From an uncultured Muribaculaceae bacterium (lineage in GTDB: Bacteria; Bacillota_I; Bacilli_A; RF39; UBA660), in assembly GCA_964616645.1 (NCBI GenBank), contig CAZTUM010000001.1, forward strand, positions 9,318 through 73,317: DNA of 64,000 nucleotides, written 5' to 3'. The notes under the pieces were generated by a model. That model saw nothing but the letters and a program-made list of their open reading frames with translations. It was not told where the DNA came from and ran no database searches. Below are positions 27,929 to 41,163 of the stretch, piece after piece. Numbering within the stretch: position 1 is the first letter of the stretch; every line of letters starts with the position of its first letter. The position numbers and the translations under genes were made by a program.

Positions 27929-28609
27929 TTATTTTAAATTTCTACAGGTAGCAAATTTTGAATATGCTTCCCTATTTAGTGATACAGTTGATAATATAAT
28001 CGCGATTGGCTCTGGTAGTATCTCGTTATATTTAACTTCTAAAATTAGATAATTATCATCAATAACACTTGTATATGTACTATCATTATCAAATAAACAA
28101 TAATTATATACACCTGATTTTATTTGTTCATCAAATGTTATTCTTACTTCTGATATTGGATAGGTATATGCTAGTCTTTTATAGTCCACTATTACGGATG
28201 GAGAAAGATGTTTAACTTTCATATCTATAATAAATTTTTTTAAGATGTTATCTTTAGTTATATCTATATCATCTATATTACCACTTAATATTTTACTACA
28301 AATTTCTTTACTTAGCAAGACTGATTCTTTACTGGTCATATTATTATGTTTATATTTACATTCTAGTTTAATAAAGTTATCTTGCAGATTGTATATTCTA
28401 ATACGATATTTTTTTCTATATAGAACTCCATCTTGTTTTTCATGATAAGCAGTGCTGTTTAAATCATCAAAGTATAAGCTTCTTATTAAATAGGTGTTAT
28501 CTTCATTATATGAATTTTTATCTATATCAAGTAATAAAGATAATTTTTGTTTTAATATTTGTGCTGTTTGTTTACTAATTAAATATTTAATTTCATGTCT
28601 ATATTTCAT
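27929..28609 (-). CDS. VTC-domain (polyphosphate-polymerase-like, triphosphate-tunnel fold) protein.
   Basis: N-terminus MKYRHEIKYLISKQTAQIL...IRSLYFDD matches the conserved start of bacterial VTC-domain proteins. Confidence 0.6.
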   Translation of the reverse strand: MKYRHEIKYLISKQTAQILKQKLSLLLDIDKNSYNEDNTYLIRSLYFDDLNSTAYHEKQDGVLYRKKYRIRIYNLQDNFIKLECKYKHNNMTSKESVLLSKEICSKILSGNIDDIDITKDNILKKFIIDMKVKHLSPSVIVDYKRLAYTYPISEVRITFDEQIKSGVYNYCLFDNDSTYTSVIDDNYLILEVKYNEILPEPIAIILSTVSLNREAYSKFATCRNLK

Positions 28610-31482
28610 AATAAATCACCAAAGTATTCTTGCATTTGTGCATCTGTTAAGTTAAAGAATGATTTAGTTTGTTTAAGCATAATTGGTGTCCTTTTTTTTA
28701 CATAGTTTTTTAATCTTTCTACATTAGATATCCAATTATCATAACTTATATTCCATCTTTCACAGTTGCGAGGCATTTCTTTTTTATATATTTCATATAA
28801 TTCTTCTATTTTATTTAATAATTTTTCTTCTGTCCATATATTATTTAAATTATAAGATAGTCTTTCTACATATCTTGTTTTAAATTCTTCGTTTTTCATT
28901 AAGTTTCTTAGTAGAGTTGTTGGTACTTTTAGTCTACTCATTGGAGTTGTACTTGTTGAAAATTGATAATAGTTTTTAGTTACATTAAACATTGCCCAGT
29001 CTAAATCATAAAATATTGCTCGTAGTTTCCCATCAGATACATCTGGGTGTGAATAAAATCTGGCATTAACTATATCATTGTTTGTAGTATATGTTTCTGC
29101 AATCCAGAAATCTATTAAACTGTCTATATCAATTTTTGTTTTTATATATTCATAATTCTTTGTATCAGACATATTGTGAGTGCTAGTATAATTTACAATA
29201 TCTTTATACCAAGTGGTACTTCCACATGTGACATTATAATCTATTCTTGTTATATTTACATTTTCTTTATCTACATTATAATGATTAGATATAAATTCTG
29301 ATTCTATTTTTTCTCTAATATTATATATTCCCCAGTATTCTCCATTAATATATAGAATAATTGTTTTATATGCTTGAACATCTACAGTATCTAAATCTTC
29401 TAGGGTTGAGGTCATAAATATATCAGAAAAAGCTGCATATTCATAGTCAGTTGAAGCACTTCTTATAACTAATGTGTTAAATGATGAGAAGTCACGATTA
29501 TCAAAAACTTGATAGTTTAATTTACTTGCTCCATATTTACTTCTAAATTTTAGTTTAAAGCTTTTTTTAGGTAGTCCTCTGGTAGTACCTCCAAATAATT
29601 GAAATCCACATGAAATGTTAAAACTCCCATCTTCCTCAAAAAGCTCTGCATTCGCAGGTACTTCTAAGTCATTATCCCAAGAGGAATTATGTACTTTGTT
29701 AAAATCGCTTTTGTTTAATGATATGGACATTACTGGTACTGTATGATTTTCATTTATTATATAAGAGGATGTTTTTATTTCACTAGGAAGTTTATCTTCT
29801 TCATAACTTATTGCTTTTAATACTGTTGTCTTTGTAAGAAAAAGAGGACTTGTATATTTTTTAGATGTTTTATTTGGATTACTACCATCTAATGTATAAT
29901 ATATTGTCCCATTTCCTGTTAATTCTACACTAATTTGTTCAACATTATTATATATACCTGGAGTAACGCTCACTTCTGGAGCGTATGCTATTGAATTTAC
30001 TCCTTTTGCATTATTTTTCTTAGGAGTTGGAGTAGAAAAATAACATATTCCTTTATCTTCACATTTGCCTATACTATAATCTAATGGTACATTTGATACA
30101 AATATTGAATCTATTATTTTATTTTCTTTTACTAGATATATACTTTCTATTTCAGATATTTTAAAATTTGTATGGTTATAAGTGTTATTTGATAGATTAG
30201 TATCTCCTGATGCCATTAAGATATAATATTCTCCTGGTTTTAGATTGACATCTGGTAAATTATACATATCTTTTATACTTTCTTTGGTAGTTAGATAATA
30301 ATTTTTTAAATTTATTGTACTTTTACTAGTGTTTTTTATCTCTATCCAGTCATAATAACTGCCTCCGTTTTGAGGTAAATAGGAATTATTTTCATTCATA
30401 ACTTCGTTTATAACTAAATCATTATTAGTATTATTTATAGTTTCGTTATATTTTTTTATTCCTGTTTTATCGTTTGCATATCCTGGAGTAATATTACTTC
30501 CTTGATAGAAGGTATCATTTTCTTTTATATAAGCAAATCCATTAGGTAAATCTTCATATTCTATTATATCTACTATTTTGTTTTTGTTTGATAGTATTAC
30601 TTGACCTTTCTTTTCTAACAATTTAAATGATGTGTAGTTATCTTGACTACTATTTGTACCTGTATAAAAGAGGTATATTTCTCCTTTTTTTAAAGATATA
30701 TCTGGCAAATTATATTTATATGGTGTATTAATATCGTTAGATAAACTATATGTTTTTAAATTAACTGTATCATTAGAAGTATTAATAATTTCAATATATC
30801 CTGGGAAATCTCCTTCTTCGGTCATAAAATTACCTTTATTTCTTGGTAATATTTCATTAATTTTTATTGTATTTTCTTCTTCATATAAACTATTTATATA
30901 TTCATTACTACCTTCTTGGGTATTAGGATATCCAGGTGTTGGGGTTTTAGAAGTATATAGATTACCATTTAAATCTCTTGCTATTGTTTCGTTTTTATCA
31001 AGTGGTGTTACATCAATTGCATCTAGTACTTTGCCATTTGATTTCGTAAGTACTATAGTTTCTCCTCCGTTGGAACTTAATTTAAAGTTTGCATATAATC
31101 CTTCTTTATTTTCTCCTGTTAAATATACTATTAGGTATGATTTAGATTTAATTGTAGTGTCAGGGAACAACCATTTAATTTTGGTTTCATCATCAGACAA
31201 ACCATAGTTTTTTAAGTTTATATCATGACTAGAACCATTATATAGTTCTATCCAATCATATAAATTACCTTCTTTATCTGCATATGCACCTTTATTTGAA
31301 GACATCACTTCATTTATTATAAGTTTGTCAATATTTGGTTCTCCAGATGATGCATTTTCTTTTTCTTCTAACTTTTTACTTGTATTTTTATCTGCTAAAA
31401 TTCCTATAGTTATACCTAGTATTACTAATATTAGACATATTATAATAAATTTTCTATTTTGGTATAAAAATTTTCTATTCAT
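28606..31482 (-). CDS. cotH: CotH-family atypical kinase with an N-terminal signal anchor and three lamin-tail domains (LTDs).
   Basis: Three LTD-like repeats (DWIELYNGSSHDINLKNYGLSD, GYIEIINTSNDTVNLKTYSLSND, DWIEIKNTSKSTINLKNYYLTT), and a C-terminal CotH domain with FYSHPDVSDGKLRAIFYDLDWAMF. Confidence 0.8.
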   Translation of the reverse strand: MNRKFLYQNRKFIIICLILVILGITIGILADKNTSKKLEEKENASSGEPNIDKLIINEVMSSNKGAYADKEGNLYDWIELYNGSSHDINLKNYGLSDDETKIKWLFPDTTIKSKSYLIVYLTGENKEGLYANFKLSSNGGETIVLTKSNGKVLDAIDVTPLDKNETIARDLNGNLYTSKTPTPGYPNTQEGSNEYINSLYEEENTIKINEILPRNKGNFMTEEGDFPGYIEIINTSNDTVNLKTYSLSNDINTPYKYNLPDISLKKGEIYLFYTGTNSSQDNYTSFKLLEKKGQVILSNKNKIVDIIEYEDLPNGFAYIKENDTFYQGSNITPGYANDKTGIKKYNETINNTNNDLVINEVMNENNSYLPQNGGSYYDWIEIKNTSKSTINLKNYYLTTKESIKDMYNLPDVNLKPGEYYILMASGDTNLSNNTYNHTNFKISEIESIYLVKENKIIDSIFVSNVPLDYSIGKCEDKGICYFSTPTPKKNNAKGVNSIAYAPEVSVTPGIYNNVEQISVELTGNGTIYYTLDGSNPNKTSKKYTSPLFLTKTTVLKAISYEEDKLPSEIKTSSYIINENHTVPVMSISLNKSDFNKVHNSSWDNDLEVPANAELFEEDGSFNISCGFQLFGGTTRGLPKKSFKLKFRSKYGASKLNYQVFDNRDFSSFNTLVIRSASTDYEYAAFSDIFMTSTLEDLDTVDVQAYKTIILYINGEYWGIYNIREKIESEFISNHYNVDKENVNITRIDYNVTCGSTTWYKDIVNYTSTHNMSDTKNYEYIKTKIDIDSLIDFWIAETYTTNNDIVNARFYSHPDVSDGKLRAIFYDLDWAMFNVTKNYYQFSTSTTPMSRLKVPTTLLRNLMKNEEFKTRYVERLSYNLNNIWTEEKLLNKIEELYEIYKKEMPRNCERWNISYDNWISNVERLKNYVKKRTPIMLKQTKSFFNLTDAQMQEYFGDLL

Positions 31483-32004: not shown

Positions 32005-32421
32005 CTATCTTGTTTTATTCTTACTCATTTGTGCTATTTCTGTTTCTAAATTATAATCTATTTTATTTACATCTTTATTATCTATAATCCATTGTTTCCA
32101 AAATTCAAATCTTTTTAAATCAAAATTAAATAATAAATTTGAAGATAAATTATTCAATACTTTCGTTGCTAGTGGATAAATTAATCTGTTTTTCTCTACT
32201 AATTTTTTCATTACGTTAGGAGTCATATATATGCCAAATGGTGGCTCATCATCCGAAAAATATGGACAAGCTACATAAACTCTTTCTCCAAAACTCAATA
32301 TTGAAAAATCTAATGAACTATATATTTCTCTTACCATTTCTTGGTCAAAATATGGCTGCATTTTTTGATAAAATTTTTTCTTGTCTGACTCTTTTTGTTG
32401 ATAAAATAATTCTTTATTCAT
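32005..32421 (-). CDS. Hypothetical cytoplasmic protein, a candidate immunity protein.
   Basis: 138 aa, no TM helix, nested between two DUF4176 genes downstream of the putative effector. Confidence 0.35.
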   Translation of the reverse strand: MNKELFYQQKESDKKKFYQKMQPYFDQEMVREIYSSLDFSILSFGERVYVACPYFSDDEPPFGIYMTPNVMKKLVEKNRLIYPLATKVLNNLSSNLLFNFDLKRFEFWKQWIIDNKDVNKIDYNLETEIAQMSKNKTR

Positions 32422-32442: not shown

Positions 32443-32763
32443 TTAATTTTGTGTGTTATTTTGGCTATTTTTATTTAACATACTATCTAAAAAATTTATA
32501 TATCTTTTGTGTTCATCATCACAATATCCTATAGCATATATTGTACTTATATCTTTATGATCAAATAACAAATTTTTATCTGAGGATTGTATACCTTCTG
32601 GATAAAGGCATCCTATATAATCCCATATTTTGTCTTGATTTTCATTAGCCTTAATTGCAAAACCAGTAATCATAATCCTTTTTTTTGCATTTTTAATCAA
32701 AACCACACTCCCTAAGGGTAAGTATTTTTTATATTTATCATTCATATTTATTTTCCCTTTCAT
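32443..32763 (-). CDS. DUF4176-family protein (associated with T7SSb loci).
   Basis: PLGSVVLIKNAKKRIMITGF...IGCLYPEGI pattern. Confidence 0.55.
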   Translation of the reverse strand: MKGKINMNDKYKKYLPLGSVVLIKNAKKRIMITGFAIKANENQDKIWDYIGCLYPEGIQSSDKNLLFDHKDISTIYAIGYCDDEHKRYINFLDSMLNKNSQNNTQN

Positions 32764-32874
32764 TTACTATCTTAATATTAACACCCTGGATTAATTATAT
32801 TAAATTATATATGTTTTGAATTATCCAGTCCATATTATATTAATATTTTTATAAAATTGTATTTAATTAAAGAT

Positions 32875-34851
32875 TTAATTATCTTCATAAATAATTTCAT
32901 CATATGCCCATTCTATTGCTTTACTACTAACTTTAGTTGCATATTTGTTAACGATACCACTATCAAGTATGTCGATAAGCACGTTAGATTCATGCTTTGT
33001 AGCCATCGTTATGTTCACCGTAGTTGCTGATTCATAAGTTGCGGACCCTATGTCTTCGGATAGCTTATCCATTCCCAGTTCTTCCATCATTTGCTTTGTT
33101 TCATTTGTATCTAATTGCATTTCTTCTGTTTTCGCTATATTTGTTTTTACTTGTTCTGTTGCTTTATCTACTAGAGGATTAACGATAGTTGTATTAACTG
33201 TTGTAACAACCCCAGCTTTAATAGCTTCTGATGTTGCAGCACTAAAATCAAATTCACCATCCAATGATATACTAGCATATTCTTTTAAATATTCCTTACC
33301 CATTGATGTTCCTACTTTAGTAACTAAGCCTGATGTTCTTGGACTGCTTATACCCAATCTATTATCAATTGCATCGGAAAGAGCTTTTGAGCCTTCGCCG
33401 TATGTTAAATATGTAGCTCCAACCTCTATTGCACCTAATGCCATTCCATAGCTAGATGCTGTATCAAAATCATATCCTTTATTAAGTGCTCCTTCAGTCC
33501 CTTTGCCAATAGCTCTTAATCCATTTGTCGCGCATTTCATCGCTACTCCACCTGGCAAATATAATATTGCAATTGTTCCTGTTGTTTCTCCTATCCATTC
33601 ACCCACTGAATGCCAATTAGAATATGCAGATACACTATTTAAATGTGCTGATGCTATTAAATCATAAGTTTCTTCTGCATAATTTACTGACACAAAATCT
33701 TCTGCCCATGTAGCAGTAGGTATGAAGGGCCTATCTAATAATCTTCCTAATACCGTTACTATACCGTCAGTTATTTCTTCAAATATGTGCAAAACACCAC
33801 AACCAGTACTAGCTCCCAAAGTTTTTGTATTTTCTACGATCTTTGAGAAAGTGTTCATATTATACCAATTTATTTCATCTTCTGTTGCAATACCCATTTT
33901 CATTTTTTGATTTATTATTTTTTCTTCTACGTCTTTTGCGGAAGTGTGAATATCATACATTTCAATGTCTTTCTCTGTTGCATTACCCAATTTTATGTCA
34001 ATTTCTATTTTCGGCCAATTACAGTTAAGTTCTTTATCTTGCTCTTGTATTATATATAATTTATTTAATGTTATATTATCTTTTAAATCGTTTAATCGTT
34101 CTTTTTCTTCATTTGTTAAATTACCTTTAAAGTTATAGTAATCAATTTCATACTCTAATAATTGGTTTTCTTCCACATAATAGGAATATGTTCCTGGAGT
34201 TTTATCAGATAAAATACTTCTTTGAGTCATTATGCTTAGCTGTATTGATGTATATTTATCTATTTGCTTTATTTGTTCAGCCTTTTCATCATCTGTTAAA
34301 TTAGTAGATAAATTTATTAAATTTTTTTCACATTTTGCTTTTTTTTCTAAATCTTGCCTCTTAAAATGATAATCTCCATTTGATTTATATGTTGCCATTC
34401 TATCTTCTATACGATACAATTCTGCTAAATTCCTTCGGACTTCTAATTCTTGTTTCATCTCATCATTTAACATCCCTGATTTTTCATATTTTTCTAACAT
34501 ATCCATGAGAATTTGGTTGTATTCTCTAGCATACGCATCCATTTGAATACTATATTGCATTTTTTCTGCTTCTGTCATATTAGTATCAATTGTTGAATTT
34601 TCTGTAAATTCTTGCAATAATGTCATATATTCACTAGAAAATTTTTCATTTTCCATTAGGCTTGATTTAGCTGCATCAACTTTAGTTATTAAATCTTTTA
34701 TGTCATTGTAACACTTATAAATTAATTCATTTATACCATCTTCTGATGCTAAATTTTCCGCTACTTCCCCTATACATCTATGTATTAACGTATTAGCACA
34801 AGAAAGCTTATTATAAGCACTGAGGAATAGTCTTGCTTCAGTTTTAAACAT
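32875..34851 (-). CDS. Putative T7SS substrate or effector. The N-terminal half is helical and LXG-like; the C-terminal region is Gly/Ala/Thr-rich.
   Basis: 658 aa, with no signal peptide. It sits downstream of WXG-like and small helper genes. The C-terminus is compositionally distinct, with a run of GxxxG-like spacings. Confidence 0.4.
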   Translation of the reverse strand: MFKTEARLFLSAYNKLSCANTLIHRCIGEVAENLASEDGINELIYKCYNDIKDLITKVDAAKSSLMENEKFSSEYMTLLQEFTENSTIDTNMTEAEKMQYSIQMDAYAREYNQILMDMLEKYEKSGMLNDEMKQELEVRRNLAELYRIEDRMATYKSNGDYHFKRQDLEKKAKCEKNLINLSTNLTDDEKAEQIKQIDKYTSIQLSIMTQRSILSDKTPGTYSYYVEENQLLEYEIDYYNFKGNLTNEEKERLNDLKDNITLNKLYIIQEQDKELNCNWPKIEIDIKLGNATEKDIEMYDIHTSAKDVEEKIINQKMKMGIATEDEINWYNMNTFSKIVENTKTLGASTGCGVLHIFEEITDGIVTVLGRLLDRPFIPTATWAEDFVSVNYAEETYDLIASAHLNSVSAYSNWHSVGEWIGETTGTIAILYLPGGVAMKCATNGLRAIGKGTEGALNKGYDFDTASSYGMALGAIEVGATYLTYGEGSKALSDAIDNRLGISSPRTSGLVTKVGTSMGKEYLKEYASISLDGEFDFSAATSEAIKAGVVTTVNTTIVNPLVDKATEQVKTNIAKTEEMQLDTNETKQMMEELGMDKLSEDIGSATYESATTVNITMATKHESNVLIDILDSGIVNKYATKVSSKAIEWAYDEIIYEDN

Positions 34852-34868
34852 AATGTTAACTCCTTTTT

Positions 34869-35198
34869 TTAAAATCTAATCCTAATTAAGGAAGATATTT
34901 TTTCAGTGCGGATTCTATTTTGTAATTTTGATATTTTTTCATTATAACTGTTAATCTTATTAGATGCGATATCAATAAAATTATCTGTGGATGTTGCACA
35001 TTTGTTAAATAGCCCCGCCTGAAGAGGAACATCATTTAAAACATGCCCACCATTTTTAAAATCTAATTTTGCTTCGTTTAAATATGACTGACATTCTTTT
35101 ATTTTTGAAATTAAATTATTAAGATAATTTATTTTTGTATTGTAATCTGAAATTTTTTTTTCTAATCGTGCTACTTCTGCTTCAGTTAGTTTGTCCAT
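34869..35198 (-). CDS. Small coiled-coil helper protein (YwqH/DUF5082-like, Lap-like targeting factor).
   Basis: 109 aa with a predicted helical hairpin, immediately upstream of the large putative effector. Confidence 0.35.
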   Translation of the reverse strand: MDKLTEAEVARLEKKISDYNTKINYLNNLISKIKECQSYLNEAKLDFKNGGHVLNDVPLQAGLFNKCATSTDNFIDIASNKINSYNEKISKLQNRIRTEKISSLIRIRF

Positions 35199-35875: not shown

Positions 35876-36021
35876 AGTTAACCACTCTCCCTTACTCTAT
35901 ATGACAATTTTTATGAAACACCATTTTGGAGTATCATTATCTTAATTATAATACACCAAGTTGGTGTTCGTCAAGACAAAATTATGCTAAAAGTGATATT
36001 TTTGTCTTGGGTGATTAAATT

Positions 36022-36292: not shown

Positions 36293-39200
36293 TTACATTT
36301 TTTCTACTATTTTAATAAATTTAACTTGTCCATTTTCTACTATATATCCATAGTTATTACCTATAATAGTATAGTAATCTTGAGTTACTTTGGTAGGTTT
36401 AATTAAGTATTGTTCTGCAAATCCATCTCCTACCCATAAACCAGAACTTGGATTTATTGATGCTTTATACCATGATTCAAATTCATAAGGTTTAAATCCT
36501 GATGGTATATCTATAAATATAAAATGTACTTTTAATGTTTCTTTTGATTTATTTAAAATATTAATAAATATATCTTTATCTTTATTAGATAATGTACTTA
36601 TAAATTTATCAAAGCCAATAATAACACACATTATGTCTTCTATATTTTTTATAGCTCTAATATTATTGTTATTATTTTTTAATACTTCATCTACATTATT
36701 AACAAATTTATTTACATTATTTAGCATTTCTGTATAATTATTATTTAAATATTTTATTTTCTTAAAATCACTATTTTCATATATATATTTAGCATCCATT
36801 ACAAGGGTATTTGTATTACTATTATCTAAAATACGTAAGAATTTATCTATAAATGATATATTTTCATCTAATTCTCTAAAACTAATTAGATAACTTAATT
36901 CATCTTTCAATTTTATACTAGCTACACCTAAAGTCTTTTTTATCATACCAACAGGTATGAAATTTAATCCTATTTCTCCTTTAGCTATATGCTTAAATTC
37001 TACTTCTTTAGGTAGTACTGGTATTGGTTTCATCTTTGTTTTGTAGGTCATAAATGTTTTTATTGAAGTAGCTAGAATATTTTTATATAACTCATCTTTA
37101 TCAAATGCATAAGCAGTTTGAAATTCTAATACTCTATCTTTCTTAAATAAACCTCTACCATATAGTTTAGATGGTACTATACCATTAGTATTTCCATATA
37201 TACTTCTATAATCAAATTCATTGTTAAGTTGTAGGGAGTATATTGTTTTAAATGTTTGTAATAATTTACTCTTTACTCCGTTTATAGAACTAACTGTAAG
37301 TATAAAGTATATACCAAACTTATTAGCTTCACGGGTTAATTCATATAGTTTTTCTGATTCATTATTATAAAGCTCTGAGAATACATCAAATTGATTTATA
37401 ATTATTACAAGATTAGGTATTTTTTGTTCTGATTTAGATATAAAGTCTTTATAATTACCATTAAATTGTAAGAATTTTTTTCTTCTAAAATCTATTTCGG
37501 TTTTAATATACTTAAATAAGTTTTCTAATTTTTCATCTTCTCCAGAATGTACTATATCTCCTACATGTGAACTATCAATAAAATTATTTAATACTTCTGT
37601 ACCAAAATCTAGTATATAAATACCTAATTCTTCTGGTGTATATGTGGTTATTAATGAATAAATTAAAGTTGTTAGAAACAGTTCTTTACCACTTCCACTT
37701 GCTCCATAAAGTAAGAAGTTTCCTTCGTTGCTAAGCGGAACAGTAAGTATATTTTGTTGTTGTTTGTGTGGTTCATCATATTCACCAACTATTGGATTTA
37801 AAACAAAGTTTTCTTTTTGATAATTATACTTTGCTTTTAATTTATCAACATAAATTGTTTTTGGAATACTCCCTAACCATAGTGGGGTTATTTTTAATTT
37901 TTGGGTTTTTGATGTTTCTATTATGTAATTAAGTATATTAGGAAGTTCTTCTCCTTTATGTACAAATTGTGTATTATTTTTTTCTATATTAGATTTTTTT
38001 ATTATAGCCCCTATATCATCTACAAAATCTATTGTAGAATCTACTAAAGTTATTTTTTTATCGCTTTCATAATAAGGCATACCTGCATAAGCACTTTGTC
38101 CTAATGCAAAGAATTCATTATAACCTACTTGTAAATAGAATCTTCCTGTATCTTTTAGCATTACTGCCTCTGGACGTTTTAACATATCGTTTGAATCTGT
38201 TTTATCTTGTACTTTTAAGCATATTCTAAATTTAGAGTTAGACCAAATTTGGTCATCAACTACACCACTTGGTTTTTGAGTTGCTAGTATGAGGTGTACC
38301 CCCAAGGAACGGCCTATACGTGCTGTTGAAATTAATTCATCCATAAACTCTGGTTGTTGGCTTTTAAGTTCTGCAAACTCATCACTTATTATAAATAAAT
38401 GACTCATTGGCTCATCTAGTTTACCTGCTCTATAAAGTTCTTGATATTTATAAATATCCATACTGCTTTCATTTAATTTTTCACGGGCTTGTTTAAACAT
38501 GGTCTGTCTTCTTTTAAGTTCACTATTAATACTAGCTAAACTTCTTTTTATTTCAACTACATCCAAATTAGTAAGAGTCCCTACTACGTGTGGAAGTTTT
38601 ACGCCTGTTTCTCTATTATCAAATGTAAGAGCAAGTCCACCCCCTTTATAATCTATAAGTACAAATTGTACTTCTTCTGGACTATAATTTACCGCCATGG
38701 AAAGTATATAAGTTATTATCCACTCTGATTTACCACTTCCTGTCATACCAGCAACAAGTCCATGTGGTCCATGTGCTTTTTCGTGTAAATCAAGTTTAAA
38801 TAATTCTCCTTGTTCATCTATTCCTACAGGAGCTTCTAATGATTTTGTTATATTATTTTCTTTCCATCTATTAATTATATTTAATTGATTAACATTTCCT
38901 ACATCAAACATTTCTAAAAAACCATATTTTTTAGGAAGTACAAATTTACCACTATTAATATCCATAGGTATATTACTTATTTTTGTAATGCAGTTATTTA
39001 ATGAAAAGTTTACTATATCAGGTTTAAATGCAATTTGATTATCTGATGACATTTGATTAGTAAATATACCACTTAATCCATAAGCTGCATTTATAAACAT
39101 ACTACACTCATTAGGGATAGTATTAAGTTTATTATCACTCATTATTATACTATAACCTAAATTAACTTGACTTTTTAATATTTCACTAATAAAAGAATTA

Positions 39201-40900
39201 CTTTTTAATGTTGAAATATCATCTGTTATTATTAGGTAATATGGAATAAACTGTATTTTTTCACCATTTTCACTGCTTGTTTCTTTTCTATAGTTATATT
39301 CTTCCATTAACAGTCTTGTTATTTTATTTATATCATCTTTATTTGTTCCAAAATACCTAGTACTTTTTTCATTATCCCATATAAATGGTATACTTTTATA
39401 TTTTTCCCAATATTTTTTGTTTTTTTCATTGGTTAAAATAATAATTCTTAACATGTCATATCCATGATAAGCCATTACTTGCAATAACAAATTATCAAAG
39501 AAATTATTCACCATATTTTTTTCACCTATTATAGCAACTTTATTATTATTTCTAAAATTTAGTGTTATAGGTACATTTTCTATTTCTTTATTATCTTTTG
39601 CTATTTCAGTAATTAAGTTCTTTAAATCATCTTCTTCCATAGTAAAATGTTCTTCTGGATATTTTATTTCTATGTCAGGAATTTTATTTCCCAAACCTAA
39701 TCTAAGTTCTAAAAAATCTGTATGTTCTAATTTCCTTTCCCATAAATTACGTGATTTATTTAAAATAACATCTCTTACATTTTCTATAGGTAAATTATTC
39801 TCAGATAGTACTGCTTTTTGGTAATTAACCTCTTTCATTATTTCTTGATGTTTACTATCAATATATTTTTTATATTTTTTTACTCTTGCTTTTTCTTTTT
39901 TTATTTTTTTTCTTTTATTATAAAACTTTTGAGCTAATGGGAAAACTATCATAGCAATTAACATACAAACTGTCATAAGTATTGATGAAAATTGTTCTTT
40001 TAGAGTACTTTCACCACTTAATACTTTTTGAAGAGCCATAACTCCTGTTACCATACTCATCATACCCATAGTAAGCATAGGTGCTATGGTAAATATTAAA
40101 GGCATATCTTCTTGTTTTTCTTTTTGGGTAGGAGGGTCTAAATTAAATATTTTTCTCTCTATTTGTCTTTTAAATCTTGGTGGTCTTTGAAAATATTGTG
40201 ATTTATCAAAGAATAATACTTCTTTATCTATATATTCTTTATAATCTGTAATAGGATTTTCTTTAACTATTCTTTGGCTTAATTTTTCTGTATTGAATGT
40301 AATATCATTGTTATTATTACTTATTAATAATAATGAGCCAAAATAATATATGAATAATCCACAAATAAAAATTGAATCACCTAATTGTAAATACATTTCA
40401 TTTGATAATATATTATTAATAAATAATTTATTATCTTGATTTAAATTTTTTATTAATATTCCACCGTTATCTTGATTATAAGTAATATTTATTTGTTGTT
40501 TTGAAAATAGATTATTATTAACATTTATATCACAAGTATTATCACTACCAATTATTATGCTGTTGTTTTTTGTCCAATCAATAATTAAATTTTCAAAATT
40601 TTCACAACTAGGTAGTATATATAATATATATTTTTCTTTAGTATTTAGGTTAATTATATAATAAATATTATTTATCTTTAATATTTCTGATTCTTTAAAT
40701 TCAACTCCATTTAAATCATTATTTATAAAATTAGTACTTATTTTTATATCTGCATTACTTTTTAATACCCAATTATTTTCTTCTTCTACAACGTTTAGCA
40801 AGTTTTTTGAATTACTATCTAGTATCCAATAATTACCTGATGTTTGTTCCGGTAATGTGGTAACACTTATATTATTAACACTTTCTACTATTACTTTCAT
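36293..40900 (-). CDS. essC: Type VII secretion FtsK/SpoIIIE-family ATPase EssC (YukB-like).
   Basis: 1535 aa with an FHA-like N-terminus, two TM helices at about residues 270-330, and three P-loop ATPase domains (Walker A GMTGSGKSE; degenerate GASGSGKE in D2; degenerate D3). Confidence 0.85.
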   Translation of the reverse strand: MKVIVESVNNISVTTLPEQTSGNYWILDSNSKNLLNVVEEENNWVLKSNADIKISTNFINNDLNGVEFKESEILKINNIYYIINLNTKEKYILYILPSCENFENLIIDWTKNNSIIIGSDNTCDINVNNNLFSKQQINITYNQDNGGILIKNLNQDNKLFINNILSNEMYLQLGDSIFICGLFIYYFGSLLLISNNNNDITFNTEKLSQRIVKENPITDYKEYIDKEVLFFDKSQYFQRPPRFKRQIERKIFNLDPPTQKEKQEDMPLIFTIAPMLTMGMMSMVTGVMALQKVLSGESTLKEQFSSILMTVCMLIAMIVFPLAQKFYNKRKKIKKEKARVKKYKKYIDSKHQEIMKEVNYQKAVLSENNLPIENVRDVILNKSRNLWERKLEHTDFLELRLGLGNKIPDIEIKYPEEHFTMEEDDLKNLITEIAKDNKEIENVPITLNFRNNNKVAIIGEKNMVNNFFDNLLLQVMAYHGYDMLRIIILTNEKNKKYWEKYKSIPFIWDNEKSTRYFGTNKDDINKITRLLMEEYNYRKETSSENGEKIQFIPYYLIITDDISTLKSNSFISEILKSQVNLGYSIIMSDNKLNTIPNECSMFINAAYGLSGIFTNQMSSDNQIAFKPDIVNFSLNNCITKISNIPMDINSGKFVLPKKYGFLEMFDVGNVNQLNIINRWKENNITKSLEAPVGIDEQGELFKLDLHEKAHGPHGLVAGMTGSGKSEWIITYILSMAVNYSPEEVQFVLIDYKGGGLALTFDNRETGVKLPHVVGTLTNLDVVEIKRSLASINSELKRRQTMFKQAREKLNESSMDIYKYQELYRAGKLDEPMSHLFIISDEFAELKSQQPEFMDELISTARIGRSLGVHLILATQKPSGVVDDQIWSNSKFRICLKVQDKTDSNDMLKRPEAVMLKDTGRFYLQVGYNEFFALGQSAYAGMPYYESDKKITLVDSTIDFVDDIGAIIKKSNIEKNNTQFVHKGEELPNILNYIIETSKTQKLKITPLWLGSIPKTIYVDKLKAKYNYQKENFVLNPIVGEYDEPHKQQQNILTVPLSNEGNFLLYGASGSGKELFLTTLIYSLITTYTPEELGIYILDFGTEVLNNFIDSSHVGDIVHSGEDEKLENLFKYIKTEIDFRRKKFLQFNGNYKDFISKSEQKIPNLVIIINQFDVFSELYNNESEKLYELTREANKFGIYFILTVSSINGVKSKLLQTFKTIYSLQLNNEFDYRSIYGNTNGIVPSKLYGRGLFKKDRVLEFQTAYAFDKDELYKNILATSIKTFMTYKTKMKPIPVLPKEVEFKHIAKGEIGLNFIPVGMIKKTLGVASIKLKDELSYLISFRELDENISFIDKFLRILDNSNTNTLVMDAKYIYENSDFKKIKYLNNNYTEMLNNVNKFVNNVDEVLKNNNNNIRAIKNIEDIMCVIIGFDKFISTLSNKDKDIFINILNKSKETLKVHFIFIDIPSGFKPYEFESWYKASINPSSGLWVGDGFAEQYLIKPTKVTQDYYTIIGNNYGYIVENGQVKFIKIVEKM

Positions 40901-40908
40901 ACTATCAC

Positions 40909-41163
40909 CTATACTAAAGCCAAAAGTGTACCATTTTTTATTCCAGAATTTATTATTTCAACATTATAATCATAAAATACACCCTCAATAACATTCAACA
41001 AAGATAATTTATTATTTATCGCAAAACATCCTGTCATTTCATTTATTGCTTTATTTAAAATAACAATAACTTCTCCTACTGTTTTGTTAACTGGTATAAA
41101 TATATTATATTGTTTACCAACACTTGGAACAATTAATTCAACATTAACTTTATTCCCTTTCAT
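40909..41163 (-). CDS. esaB: EsaB/YukD ubiquitin-like T7SS protein.
   Basis: 84 aa, beta-grasp-like; C-terminus GIKNGTLLALV resembles YukD; immediately upstream of essC. Confidence 0.7.
   Translation of the reverse strand: MKGNKVNVELIVPSVGKQYNIFIPVNKTVGEVIVILNKAINEMTGCFAINNKLSLLNVIEGVFYDYNVEIINSGIKNGTLLALV

Follow-up and report, generated by a model that had tools for sequence, protein, structure and literature searches.

The described systems closest to the locus analyzed here are the LXG toxins of type VII secretion systems (T7SS) that have Lap and Ltc partners, such as TelA and TelB of Streptococcus intermedius (PMC12478183, PMC10801868, PMC9600955). The Ltc (DUF4176) proteins are chaperones by which a disordered amphipathic helix of the LXG toxin middle domain is both folded and shielded; the authors of that work speculated that this region serves in translocation across membranes and that the small DUF4176 proteins bind membrane-inserting helices, and drew a mechanistic analogy with the diphtheria toxin T domain (PMC12478183). 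In Streptococcus suis, DUF4176 proteins partner and stabilize their cognate C-terminal toxins (PMC12482557). A second set of described effectors, namely TspA, TelE, EsxX and S. suis LXG1-CT3, comprises depolarizing T7SS toxins with a glycine zipper (PMC10434224, PMC12744356, PMC12482557, 10.64898/2026.03.12.711312); EsxX of Staphylococcus aureus is membrane active and is neutralized in the cytoplasm by a soluble protein pair, ExiAB (PMC12744356). We analyzed a gene for a 658-amino-acid (aa) effector within a 64,000-nucleotide stretch of DNA from an uncultured bacterium (contig CAZTUM010000001.1 of assembly GCA_964616645.1), referred to here as the window. This gene forms part of a cassette beside essC in which the genes for a tandem WXG100 protein, a helper, the effector, a first DUF4176 protein (DUF4176a), a 138-aa protein and a second DUF4176 protein (DUF4176b) occupy one strand with tight spacing (Table 1).

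Comparison with the LXG cassettes indicated a common build. Toxins of the TelA/TelB type and the window effector are both linked to essC and lack a signal peptide; in both, a helical N-terminal domain has a small helical partner gene ahead of it, a poorly predicted amphipathic middle region has an adjoining DUF4176 gene, and a hypervariable C terminus has a cognate downstream gene, with NADase (TNT) and ADP-ribosyltransferase (ART) domains found among the relatives. The components, however, were different. The N-terminal domain of the window effector was unmatched by the LXG model or by solved structures and lacks an L-x-G motif; there is a single helper, with no DUF3130 or DUF3958 protein, rather than two Lap factors; the DUF4176 genes belong to the small class and are found downstream, unlike the large Ltc genes, which are placed between those for the Lap factors and the toxin; the middle region is conserved in sequence and defines the family, with invariant acidic residues (E/D) and a glycine zipper; and the WXG100 protein is a fused tandem, with EssA, EssB and EsaA not found nearby. 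With the depolarizing toxins the effector shares a Gly-rich amphipathic GxxxGxxxG region, a soluble partner (as for EsxX and ExiAB) and adjoining DUF4176 genes, DUF4176 stabilization having been shown for LXG1-CT3. It exhibited no sequence similarity to any PDB chain. Unlike the TspA, TelE and EsxX type, its zipper is located in a conserved pre-toxin module rather than in the variable toxin domain, and the cassette does not encode a polytopic membrane protein for immunity of the DUF443, TsaI or ExiCD type. As judged from these comparisons of sequence, the cassette is best read as a non-LXG T7SSb polymorphic toxin family of uncultured low-GC gut Bacilli, with a previously undescribed, alignable, DUF4176-linked module (module M). 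The reading that we favor, with moderate confidence, is that the effector is an exported toxin of a compact T7SSb cassette in uncultured low-GC Bacilli and that it has an LXG-like build composed of modules outside the described families.

Architecture and relatives of the effector

The open reading frames (ORFs) of the helper and effector were reproduced at the positions first assigned to them, and an AAGGAG ribosome-binding site precedes the effector ATG at 8 nucleotides. No signal peptide was detected in the effector, an N-terminal hydrophobic stretch was not found, and the highest Kyte-Doolittle mean for 19 residues in the entire protein was 1.19, compared with a usual threshold for a transmembrane helix of ∼1.6. 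A Sec-exported or membrane-anchored surface protein was ruled out by the absence of a signal peptide and of a transmembrane segment. Homology of the effector to a housekeeping family was also checked and none was found. Thus, none of the features that would have indicated another kind of protein (a signal peptide, a membrane anchor or housekeeping homology) was present, and the original prediction of a T7SS-linked modular effector with a dedicated helper and no signal peptide was supported.

An identical effector protein is recorded in public NCBI and Logan assemblies, and a word-indexed search of 5.8 billion proteins detected eight homologues of 716-1016 aa, none with a Pfam domain; the effector gene is, therefore, not a chance ORF. 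An alignment of these homologues was conserved from Met1 to ∼Ala465 and was followed by total divergence. This alignment was used in HMMER to search 1.84 billion cluster representatives exhaustively, and 392 clusters (at 50% identity) with an E value of ≤1e-3 were detected; the representatives of the best 155 of these clusters were dissected into modules by local jackhmmer searches. The predicted architecture of the effector is one of three modules (N, M and CT-Q) and not two. Module N was present in 57 and module M in 146 of the 155 best relatives, and CT-Q was detected in only seven other cluster representatives (P0004, P0015, P0022, P0035, P0093, P0114 and P0115). No additional homologues were obtained when the alignments of M and N were used in word-indexed protein searches. 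For the effector and its separate modules, as for the helper and the 138-aa ORF, searches of Pfam, NCBIfam and PHROGs detected nothing above threshold, and searches of PDB sequences that used the protein alone, or profiles built from N, M, CT-Q and the family of the 138-aa protein, produced only coiled-coil or low-complexity noise. A Foldseek comparison of the full-length effector model (predicted local distance difference test score [pLDDT] of 58.7) with the PDB was uninformative.

The fraction of G+A+S+T residues changed from 0.08-0.30 over residues 1-400 to 0.44-0.48 over residues 401-550, and the proportion of charged residues dropped along with this switch from 0.24-0.40 to 0.10-0.22. Local GC content was 0.33-0.38 over ∼32950-33900, compared with 0.21-0.27 on either side. 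The ORF layout, the composition switch and the raised GC content were, therefore, all as first described. The proposal that the higher GC content marks a separate module did not survive, as the rise was confined to codon positions 1 and 2 (0.45 and 0.47 in M versus 0.37 and 0.25 in N) and GC content at the third codon position (GC3) was flat along the effector gene at 0.18-0.21; the rise, therefore, reflects Gly and Ala codons and not foreign DNA. Horizontal acquisition of the C-terminal half, an idea derived from GC content, was ruled out by this flat GC3. The GC3 values of the effector gene and the 138-aa ORF (0.17) were somewhat higher than those for EssC (0.12), the WXG gene (0.09) and a CotH gene (0.13), a weak hint of more frequent exchange of toxin and immunity genes than of core genes.

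Module M, the DUF4176 proteins and the CT-Q pair

Module M followed module N in 48 proteins, short unrelated N termini (≤130 aa) in 59 and other, longer N termini in 39. It was trailed by 140 to 2,900 further residues, the exceptions being a few likely fragments that end within or just past M. Conservation was highest at D362 (144/144), E358 (141/144), G449 (137/144), Y396 (132/146) and G421 (130/145), with E358 and D362 forming a near-invariant E-x3-D pair in the first hydrophobic helix of the module. Zipper positions G417, G421 and G425 were occupied by Gly in 99, 130 and 103 of 145 rows, respectively; a strict GxxxGxxxG was present in 93 of 142 M modules and a four-rung small-xxx-small ladder in 137 of 142. 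Predicted M helices had a positive mean hydrophobicity, unlike the N helices, and the AlphaFold pLDDT for M was low (45-66). No Pfam model, including the pre-toxin models, and no PDB chain matched M, and no similarity was seen to the cocrystallized TelA middle-domain fragment, assuming that the PDB copy includes that entry. These findings altered part of the original prediction, in which the Gly/Ala-rich C terminus was a single toxin domain, possibly of a glycine-zipper type. A variable module (∼481-658) is indeed present, but residues 331-480 form a conserved pre-toxin module, and the zipper, although real, is found in the latter and not in the variable part.

M resembles the pre-toxin domains of the Zhang/Aravind classification in being a conserved module between a trafficking domain and a variable toxin. 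By analogy, it is also similar to translocation modules, being hydrophobic and amphipathic with conserved acidic residues, as would be expected for membrane insertion. It differs from the pre-toxin domains in that no Pfam pre-toxin model fits it, and its translocation function is one that we purely infer. M-like modules were also observed within the first ∼270 residues of proteins of 1,900-3,100 aa (P0123, P0129, P0131, P0132, P0141 and P0151-P0153; L018 7001-15697). One of these, P0123, had zero Pfam matches and follows a run of unannotated genes. A kinship of M with phage tape-measure proteins, an idea that came from these giants, was rejected; a single PHROG, of giant phage proteins of unknown function, was matched and the match was far from the M region of P0123.

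Wherever a related locus was long enough for neighbors to be seen, a DUF4176 gene was present beside the M-bearing one, and the DUF4176 genes of these loci are 53-81% identical to DUF4176a. Counterparts of DUF4176b (59-68% identity) were detected in L002 and L015, where they come after the immunity gene, and L017 contains a partial DUF4176 gene in this position; loci without CT-Q (L004, L006, L007 and L008) have one DUF4176 gene apiece. Both DUF4176 proteins of the window are of the small, 70-130 aa, class (PMC12478183) and adjoin the effector and immunity genes. For DUF4176a, the likelier start is the second ATG at 32745 (100 aa); the ribosome-binding site is better placed for this codon, which also agrees with the public gene call. 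Because of the analogy with Ltc proteins and the LXG middle domain and the constant co-occurrence of M and DUF4176, M is the likeliest candidate for the client of DUF4176a. A promoter-like sequence, TGGACT-17-TATAAT (32804-32832), was noted in the 111-nucleotide gap between the effector and DUF4176a genes and possibly drives the chaperone and immunity genes separately.

The C termini of the relatives were examined by scanning ∼100 family members with Pfam (8 close homologues; 7, 10 and 6 further members; and 70 more). Known toxin domains were detected in 11 and a known trafficking domain in none. The 70 additional members included six with TNT (NAD+ glycohydrolase) and five with ADPrib_exo_Tox, while most C termini of the scanned members had no Pfam match. 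The C terminus of P0075 was similar to C3/Vip2-type ADP-ribosyltransferases in the PDB (E value of 5e-10), and ART-like C termini were also present on N-bearing effectors, including the essC-adjacent effector of L007. In this locus (L007 7992-12323), the ART-type effector is followed by a 74-aa ORF and then by a 398-aa ADP-ribosylglycohydrolase (PF03747, E value of 5e-73). Enzymes of this type act as immunity factors against ADP-ribosylating toxins, and the L007 protein is likely to be an enzymatic immunity protein. At the level of sequence, variable C termini that include TNT and ART domains are the signature of a polymorphic toxin family.

Two other arrangements were observed. A tandem array lacking N (L008 1-3731) consists of a P0061-like effector with a YHEAFH motif, a 171-aa ORF, a DUF4176 gene and P0060, which has a short N terminus, M and a C terminus without an assigned family; the array is suggestive of cassettes that are orphan or secondary and have a chaperone apiece. 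In cultured organisms, plasmids p337 of Clostridium felsineum (L010 10702-12264) and pBC07-2 of Bacillus cereus (L013 6919-8237) encode a protein of 277-317 aa labeled "WXG100 family type VII secretion target" in the annotation, along with a hypothetical small ORF and a DUF4176 gene, also small, and these mini-cassettes may be a further non-LXG arrangement of toxin, immunity and chaperone genes. None of the DUF4176-bearing plasmid loci that were retrieved had an annotated LXG gene; they contained either proteins fused to WXG100 or a canonical T7SS of Listeria.

CT-Q has a moderately conserved core (L-V-T-K..V.GGKEY.KE....IDGEFDF..A...A.....T..NE..V.P.V), followed by a variable charged coiled-coil stretch and a conserved terminal amphipathic helix (W....KFAKKVG). 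Its amphipathic helices are Lys rich, and its invariant residues are limited to one Tyr, one Ala and four Lys, with nothing catalytic-looking. Just one small-xxx-small run (residue 539) was detected in CT-Q, the strict zipper being located in M instead. At least three distinct N-terminal arrangements were observed among the seven other carriers of CT-Q. No match in Pfam or the PDB was detected for CT-Q or for the 138-aa family. The idea of CT-Q as a diverged version of "M2," the segment found after M in most relatives, was rejected (hhalign probability of 3%).

Homologues of the 138-aa protein (35-52% identity) were encoded downstream of the effector in all seven distinct CT-Q loci (the window, L002 [=L003], L009, L014, L015, L016 and L017), directly abutting it in L009, L016 and L017, and in none of the four loci with other C termini (L004 [=L005], L006, L007 and L008). 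This association had a P value of ∼0.003 in Fisher's exact test, which ignores shared ancestry. The protein is soluble, without a hydrophobic segment, and has 25 invariant residues across four homologues. The tracking of CT-Q by this ORF supports its proposed role as a CT-Q-specific immunity or neutralizing protein, in agreement with its initial selection as the immunity candidate. By analogy with EsxX and ExiAB, a soluble partner would be compatible with either a cytoplasm-acting or a membrane-active toxin.

In the mechanism that we propose, the amphipathic glycine-zipper module M, poorly ordered alone, would be held in the cytoplasm of the producer by the DUF4176 chaperone(s), as for Ltc proteins and TelA or TelB, with the DUF4176 proteins keeping the amphipathic helices of both M and CT-Q soluble. 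After export, the uncovered M would insert into the membrane of the target cell; in relatives, it would carry TNT NADase or ADP-ribosyltransferase C termini to the cytoplasm and so act as a generic membrane-insertion or translocation module. CT-Q would be a nonenzymatic, membrane-perturbing toxin domain that is bound and neutralized in the producer cytoplasm by the soluble 138-aa protein, and DUF4176b would be a CT-specific stabilizer.

Alternatively, the toxic principle could be M itself, acting as a membrane-depolarizing agent like TspA, TelE or EsxX, with CT-Q as a regulatory or receptor-binding tail and with the 138-aa protein and DUF4176b as an ExiAB-like complex that would sequester the hydrophobic helices in the cytoplasm ahead of export. 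Such an arrangement would be consistent with the presence of the strict GxxxGxxxG in M rather than CT-Q, with the lack of catalytic-type invariant residues in CT-Q, with a soluble 138-aa protein in a cassette encoding no membrane immunity protein and with the precedent of soluble neutralizers of a glycine-zipper T7SS toxin (PMC12744356). However, M precedes enzymatic toxins (TNT and ART) in relatives, which would be redundant if M alone were lethal, and the 138-aa protein tracks with CT-Q and not with M, which occurs in all of the loci. We consider a toxic M unlikely.

Module N, the helper and the secretion machinery

From its position as the conserved N terminus of essC-linked polymorphic toxins, we infer that module N is a targeting domain. 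Residues 1-260 were modeled by AlphaFold2 from a 22-sequence alignment with a pLDDT of 91.2 and a predicted template modeling (TM) score of 0.81, producing nine helices of ≤31 residues each. The best Foldseek match of this model in the PDB had an E value of 0.29 and a TM score of ∼0.2, and the N-family profile detected zero LXG or other T7SS substrate chains in the PDB. The LXG model, PF04740, had no match in the effector (hmmscan against Pfam at an E value of ≤1) or in any of the ∼100 relatives scanned, and all of the latter were likewise unmatched by the WXG100 family. Module N had no NCBIfam match, and a conserved Leu-x-Gly was not found in the N-family alignments. The best-conserved columns were F9, A19, F71, Y75, Y100, L119/E120, L128 and E131, and the sole conserved Gly was G126 (36/48), in an E/K-S-G context. 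The initial likening of the N terminus to an LXG domain was thus not supported by these searches, and this putative targeting module is not filed here as an LXG domain. Y146 and D150 were invariant among nine close homologues, and in the wider N family these positions were occupied by Y in 43 of 68 rows and by D/E in 49 of 68 rows; the likeness of Y146-x3-D150 to the T7SS YxxxD/E export motif is reported as a lead only.

Helper homologues were detected directly upstream of the effector in L002, L004, L006, L007 and L009. Across genomes, the helper was 30-39% and the N module of the effector ∼40% identical, compared with 77-94% for the tandem WXG100 protein and 72-78% for EssC; for L002, the values were 34% for the helper and 94% for the tandem WXG100 protein. 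As N and the helper diverge together and WXG100 and EssC remain similar, these comparisons suggest that the helper is an effector-specific partner and that the tandem WXG100 protein is likely to be a conserved core component, the probable EsxA equivalent, rather than effector specific. In the proposed mechanism, N (residues 1-330) would pair with the 109-aa helper, and possibly with the WXG100 protein, to form a joint helical signal recognized by EssC. The helper had only a subthreshold YwqH-like match (E value of 4e-4) and was unmatched by DUF3130 and DUF3958 at an E value of ≤1. A DFKNGGHV turn is common to all of the helper homologues. Four of these (L002 1065-1481, L004 9568-9966, L006 1044-1553 and L007 7563-7970) have a hydrophobic Gly-rich N-terminal segment of ∼25 residues, for example VLTTCILVGLGATALIGTGAYLW, which may be a membrane anchor and which is absent from the window helper (34869-35198) and the L009 helper.

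A further alternative is that N is a highly diverged LXG domain and the effector a remote member of the LXG toxin family. The cassette follows the same logic (a helical N terminus, a middle region, a variable C terminus, an upstream helper, DUF4176, downstream immunity and essC linkage), and the weak YwqH-like match of the helper points in the same direction. We nevertheless consider this quite improbable, as PF04740 was unmatched in the effector and its relatives, no LXG chain was retrieved by the N-family profile, the confident N model had no PDB match and consists of nine short helices and not a long hairpin, a conserved L-x-G was not found and there is one helper, not two.

The EssC ATPase and a WXG100 substrate are encoded together in the window. 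EssC matched TIGR03928 with an E value of 2.1e-303 and 1009.6 bits, compared with a cutoff of 778, and was matched by Listeria EssC with an E value of 1.4e-175 (phmmer); the match of the tandem WXG100 protein to PF06013 (E value of 1.5e-9) was over the curated cutoff. The 84-aa ORF upstream of essC has homologues of 68-70% identity at the same position in L004 and L007 but no Pfam or NCBIfam match, so its assignment as YukD is based on position and size only. The T7SS locus (window 36293-41163, L004 3095-7966 and L007 1044-5918) appears to be reduced to the YukD-like ORF, EssC and the tandem WXG100 protein, placed directly between housekeeping genes. On the P0004 contig (L002 6759-9746), a second, divergent essC with 41% identity to the window EssC was observed ∼1.8 kb past the cassette, after an ffh-like gene, so that two T7SS loci may be present in some of these genomes.

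Several observations weigh against the favored reading of an exported toxin with a delivery module and a CT-Q toxin domain. Module N had no detectable kinship to LXG, WXG100 or any solved T7SS substrate, and its putative targeting role is proposed from context. The effector is preceded by a single 109-aa helper, the other upstream gene being the highly conserved tandem WXG100 gene, compared with two Lap factors for the characterized LXG toxins. No hydrophobic stretch of the effector attains the strength of a transmembrane helix. CT-Q has no recognizable toxin fold or motif, its model being unreliable (pLDDT of <35), and the cassette lacks a membrane-protein immunity gene, unlike the TspA, TelD and EsxX systems. 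EsaA, EssA and EssB were not detected in the window, L002, L004, L007 or L015 by phmmer searches of six-frame ORFs with Listeria queries (E value of ≤0.1), a search of limited sensitivity that also missed the YukD-like ORF with Listeria EsaB and in which 64 kb was visible. As an LXG complex is reported to associate with the EssB pseudokinase (preprint 10.64898/2026.03.12.711312), the recognition route may differ here.

It is very improbable that the effector is a conserved secreted or structural T7SS component with an accessory C terminus, for example a channel- or tip-forming substrate compensating for the missing EsaA, EssA and EssB. In favor of this reading, all such loci examined have an N+M protein in the same position and no detectable EsaA, EssA or EssB, and M is membrane prone. 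Against it, the hypervariable C termini comprise, among others, TNT and ART toxins for which matching immunity genes are present; tandem arrays of toxin, immunity and DUF4176 genes (L008) also contain M-bearing genes; and the identity of the N module is far below that of the core EssC and WXG genes.

Genomic setting and implications

Table 1. Features of the T7SS cassette, with positions given for the whole 64,000-nucleotide window; cassette genes are on the minus strand unless marked (+)
Feature	Position	Strand	Match or proposed role
84-aa ORF	40909..41163	(-)	EsaB/YukD candidate; directly upstream of essC, right position and size
EssC, FtsK/SpoIIIE-type T7SSb ATPase, 1535 aa	36293..40900	(-)	TIGR03928 (T7_EssCb_Firm)
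Xre-type helix-turn-helix (HTH) regulator, 76 aa	36022..36252	(+)	HTH_3, E 4.3e-14; divergent, between essC and effector operon
Promoter-like site TTGACG-18-TATAAT	35945..35974	(-)	11/12 consensus matches; upstream of tandem WXG gene
Tandem (fused two-domain) WXG100 protein, 204 aa	35261..35875	(-)	PF06013, E 1.5e-9, two stretches
Helix-turn-helix (coiled-coil) helper, 109 aa	34869..35198	(-)	Conserved DFKNGGHV turn; Lap-like targeting-factor candidate
Effector, 658 aa	32875..34851	(-)	ORF; AAGGAG Shine-Dalgarno
Effector module N, aa 1-330	33862..34851	(-)	Charged, all helical; putative T7SS targeting domain
Y146-x-x-x-D150 motif in module N	34402..34416	(-)	End of helix 5
Effector module M, aa 331-480	33412..33861	(-)	Conserved, Gly/Ala rich, amphipathic; putative DUF4176-binding and membrane-insertion module
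Glycine zipper G417-x3-G421-x3-G425 in module M	33577..33603	(-)	Strict GxxxGxxxG
Effector module CT-Q, aa 481-658	32878..33411	(-)	Variable C-terminal module; putative toxin
DUF4176a, 106 aa as listed	32443..32763	(-)	PF13780, E 2.6e-26; chaperone candidate
138-aa soluble protein	32005..32421	(-)	Cognate immunity/neutralizer candidate for CT-Q
DUF4176b, 123 aa	31617..31988	(-)	PF13780, E 4.7e-24; second chaperone candidate, travels with CT-Q/138-aa cassette

The order of tandem WXG, helper, effector, small ORF(s) and DUF4176 genes was also observed in L002, L004, L006, L007 and L015, with the YukD-like ORF and essC ahead of the cassette where the contig extends (L004 and L007); essC was also present in L015 and L009, and in L009 the DUF4176 gene is placed between the WXG gene and the helper. 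The promoter-like site upstream of the tandem WXG gene is a possible operon start; it is a consensus match only, the count of such sites in this region, which has a GC content of ∼25%, being not above the shuffled expectation. The upstream flank of the cluster encodes ribosomal proteins S18 and S6 and SSB (read from translations), and the downstream flank, directly past the cassette, a CotH kinase-like protein of 958 aa in which lamin-tail and Fn3-associated domains are present (window 27929-31482; CotH by Pfam). The T7SS cluster thus looks to be flanked by housekeeping genes. Beyond the CotH gene, on the minus strand, the public gene calls of the contig include ORFs with VTC, DUF4956 and NAGPA domains, and this CotH/VTC/DUF4956/NAGPA cluster seems to have no relation to the T7SS. 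Between essC and the WXG gene, the content of the slot differs among loci, the position being occupied by the Xre-type gene on the opposite strand in the window, by a gene for a spermidine-synthase-like protein of 250-260 aa in L004 (7978-8760) and L007 (5996-6748) and by a gene for a 246-aa protein with 31% identity to the tandem WXG protein in L015 (4094-4834). Zero Rfam families were detected at the gathering score across the entire 64-kb window.

M could help to test how T7SSb toxins with cytoplasmic targets pass the recipient membrane, the translocation role of LXG middle domains being speculation on the part of the authors who showed DUF4176 binding (PMC12478183). We tentatively raise the possibility, which we hold with low confidence, that M is a dedicated and widespread (at least 392 clusters) membrane-insertion or translocation device for T7-delivered toxins, the sequence-defined counterpart of the LXG "disordered middle domain," in a T7SS without EssA, EssB and EsaA that reads a new non-LXG fold via a single helper. 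As a conserved, alignable domain with mutable invariant residues (E358, D362, G421 and G449) in hundreds of toxin clusters, situated upstream of NADase, ADP-ribosyltransferase and other toxin domains, M makes the translocation hypothesis directly testable. T7SS targeting in these bacteria may use a non-LXG domain and one helper, apparently without EssB or EsaA. These findings also indicate that current domain databases leave the T7SSb toxins of uncultured gut Bacilli largely uncovered.

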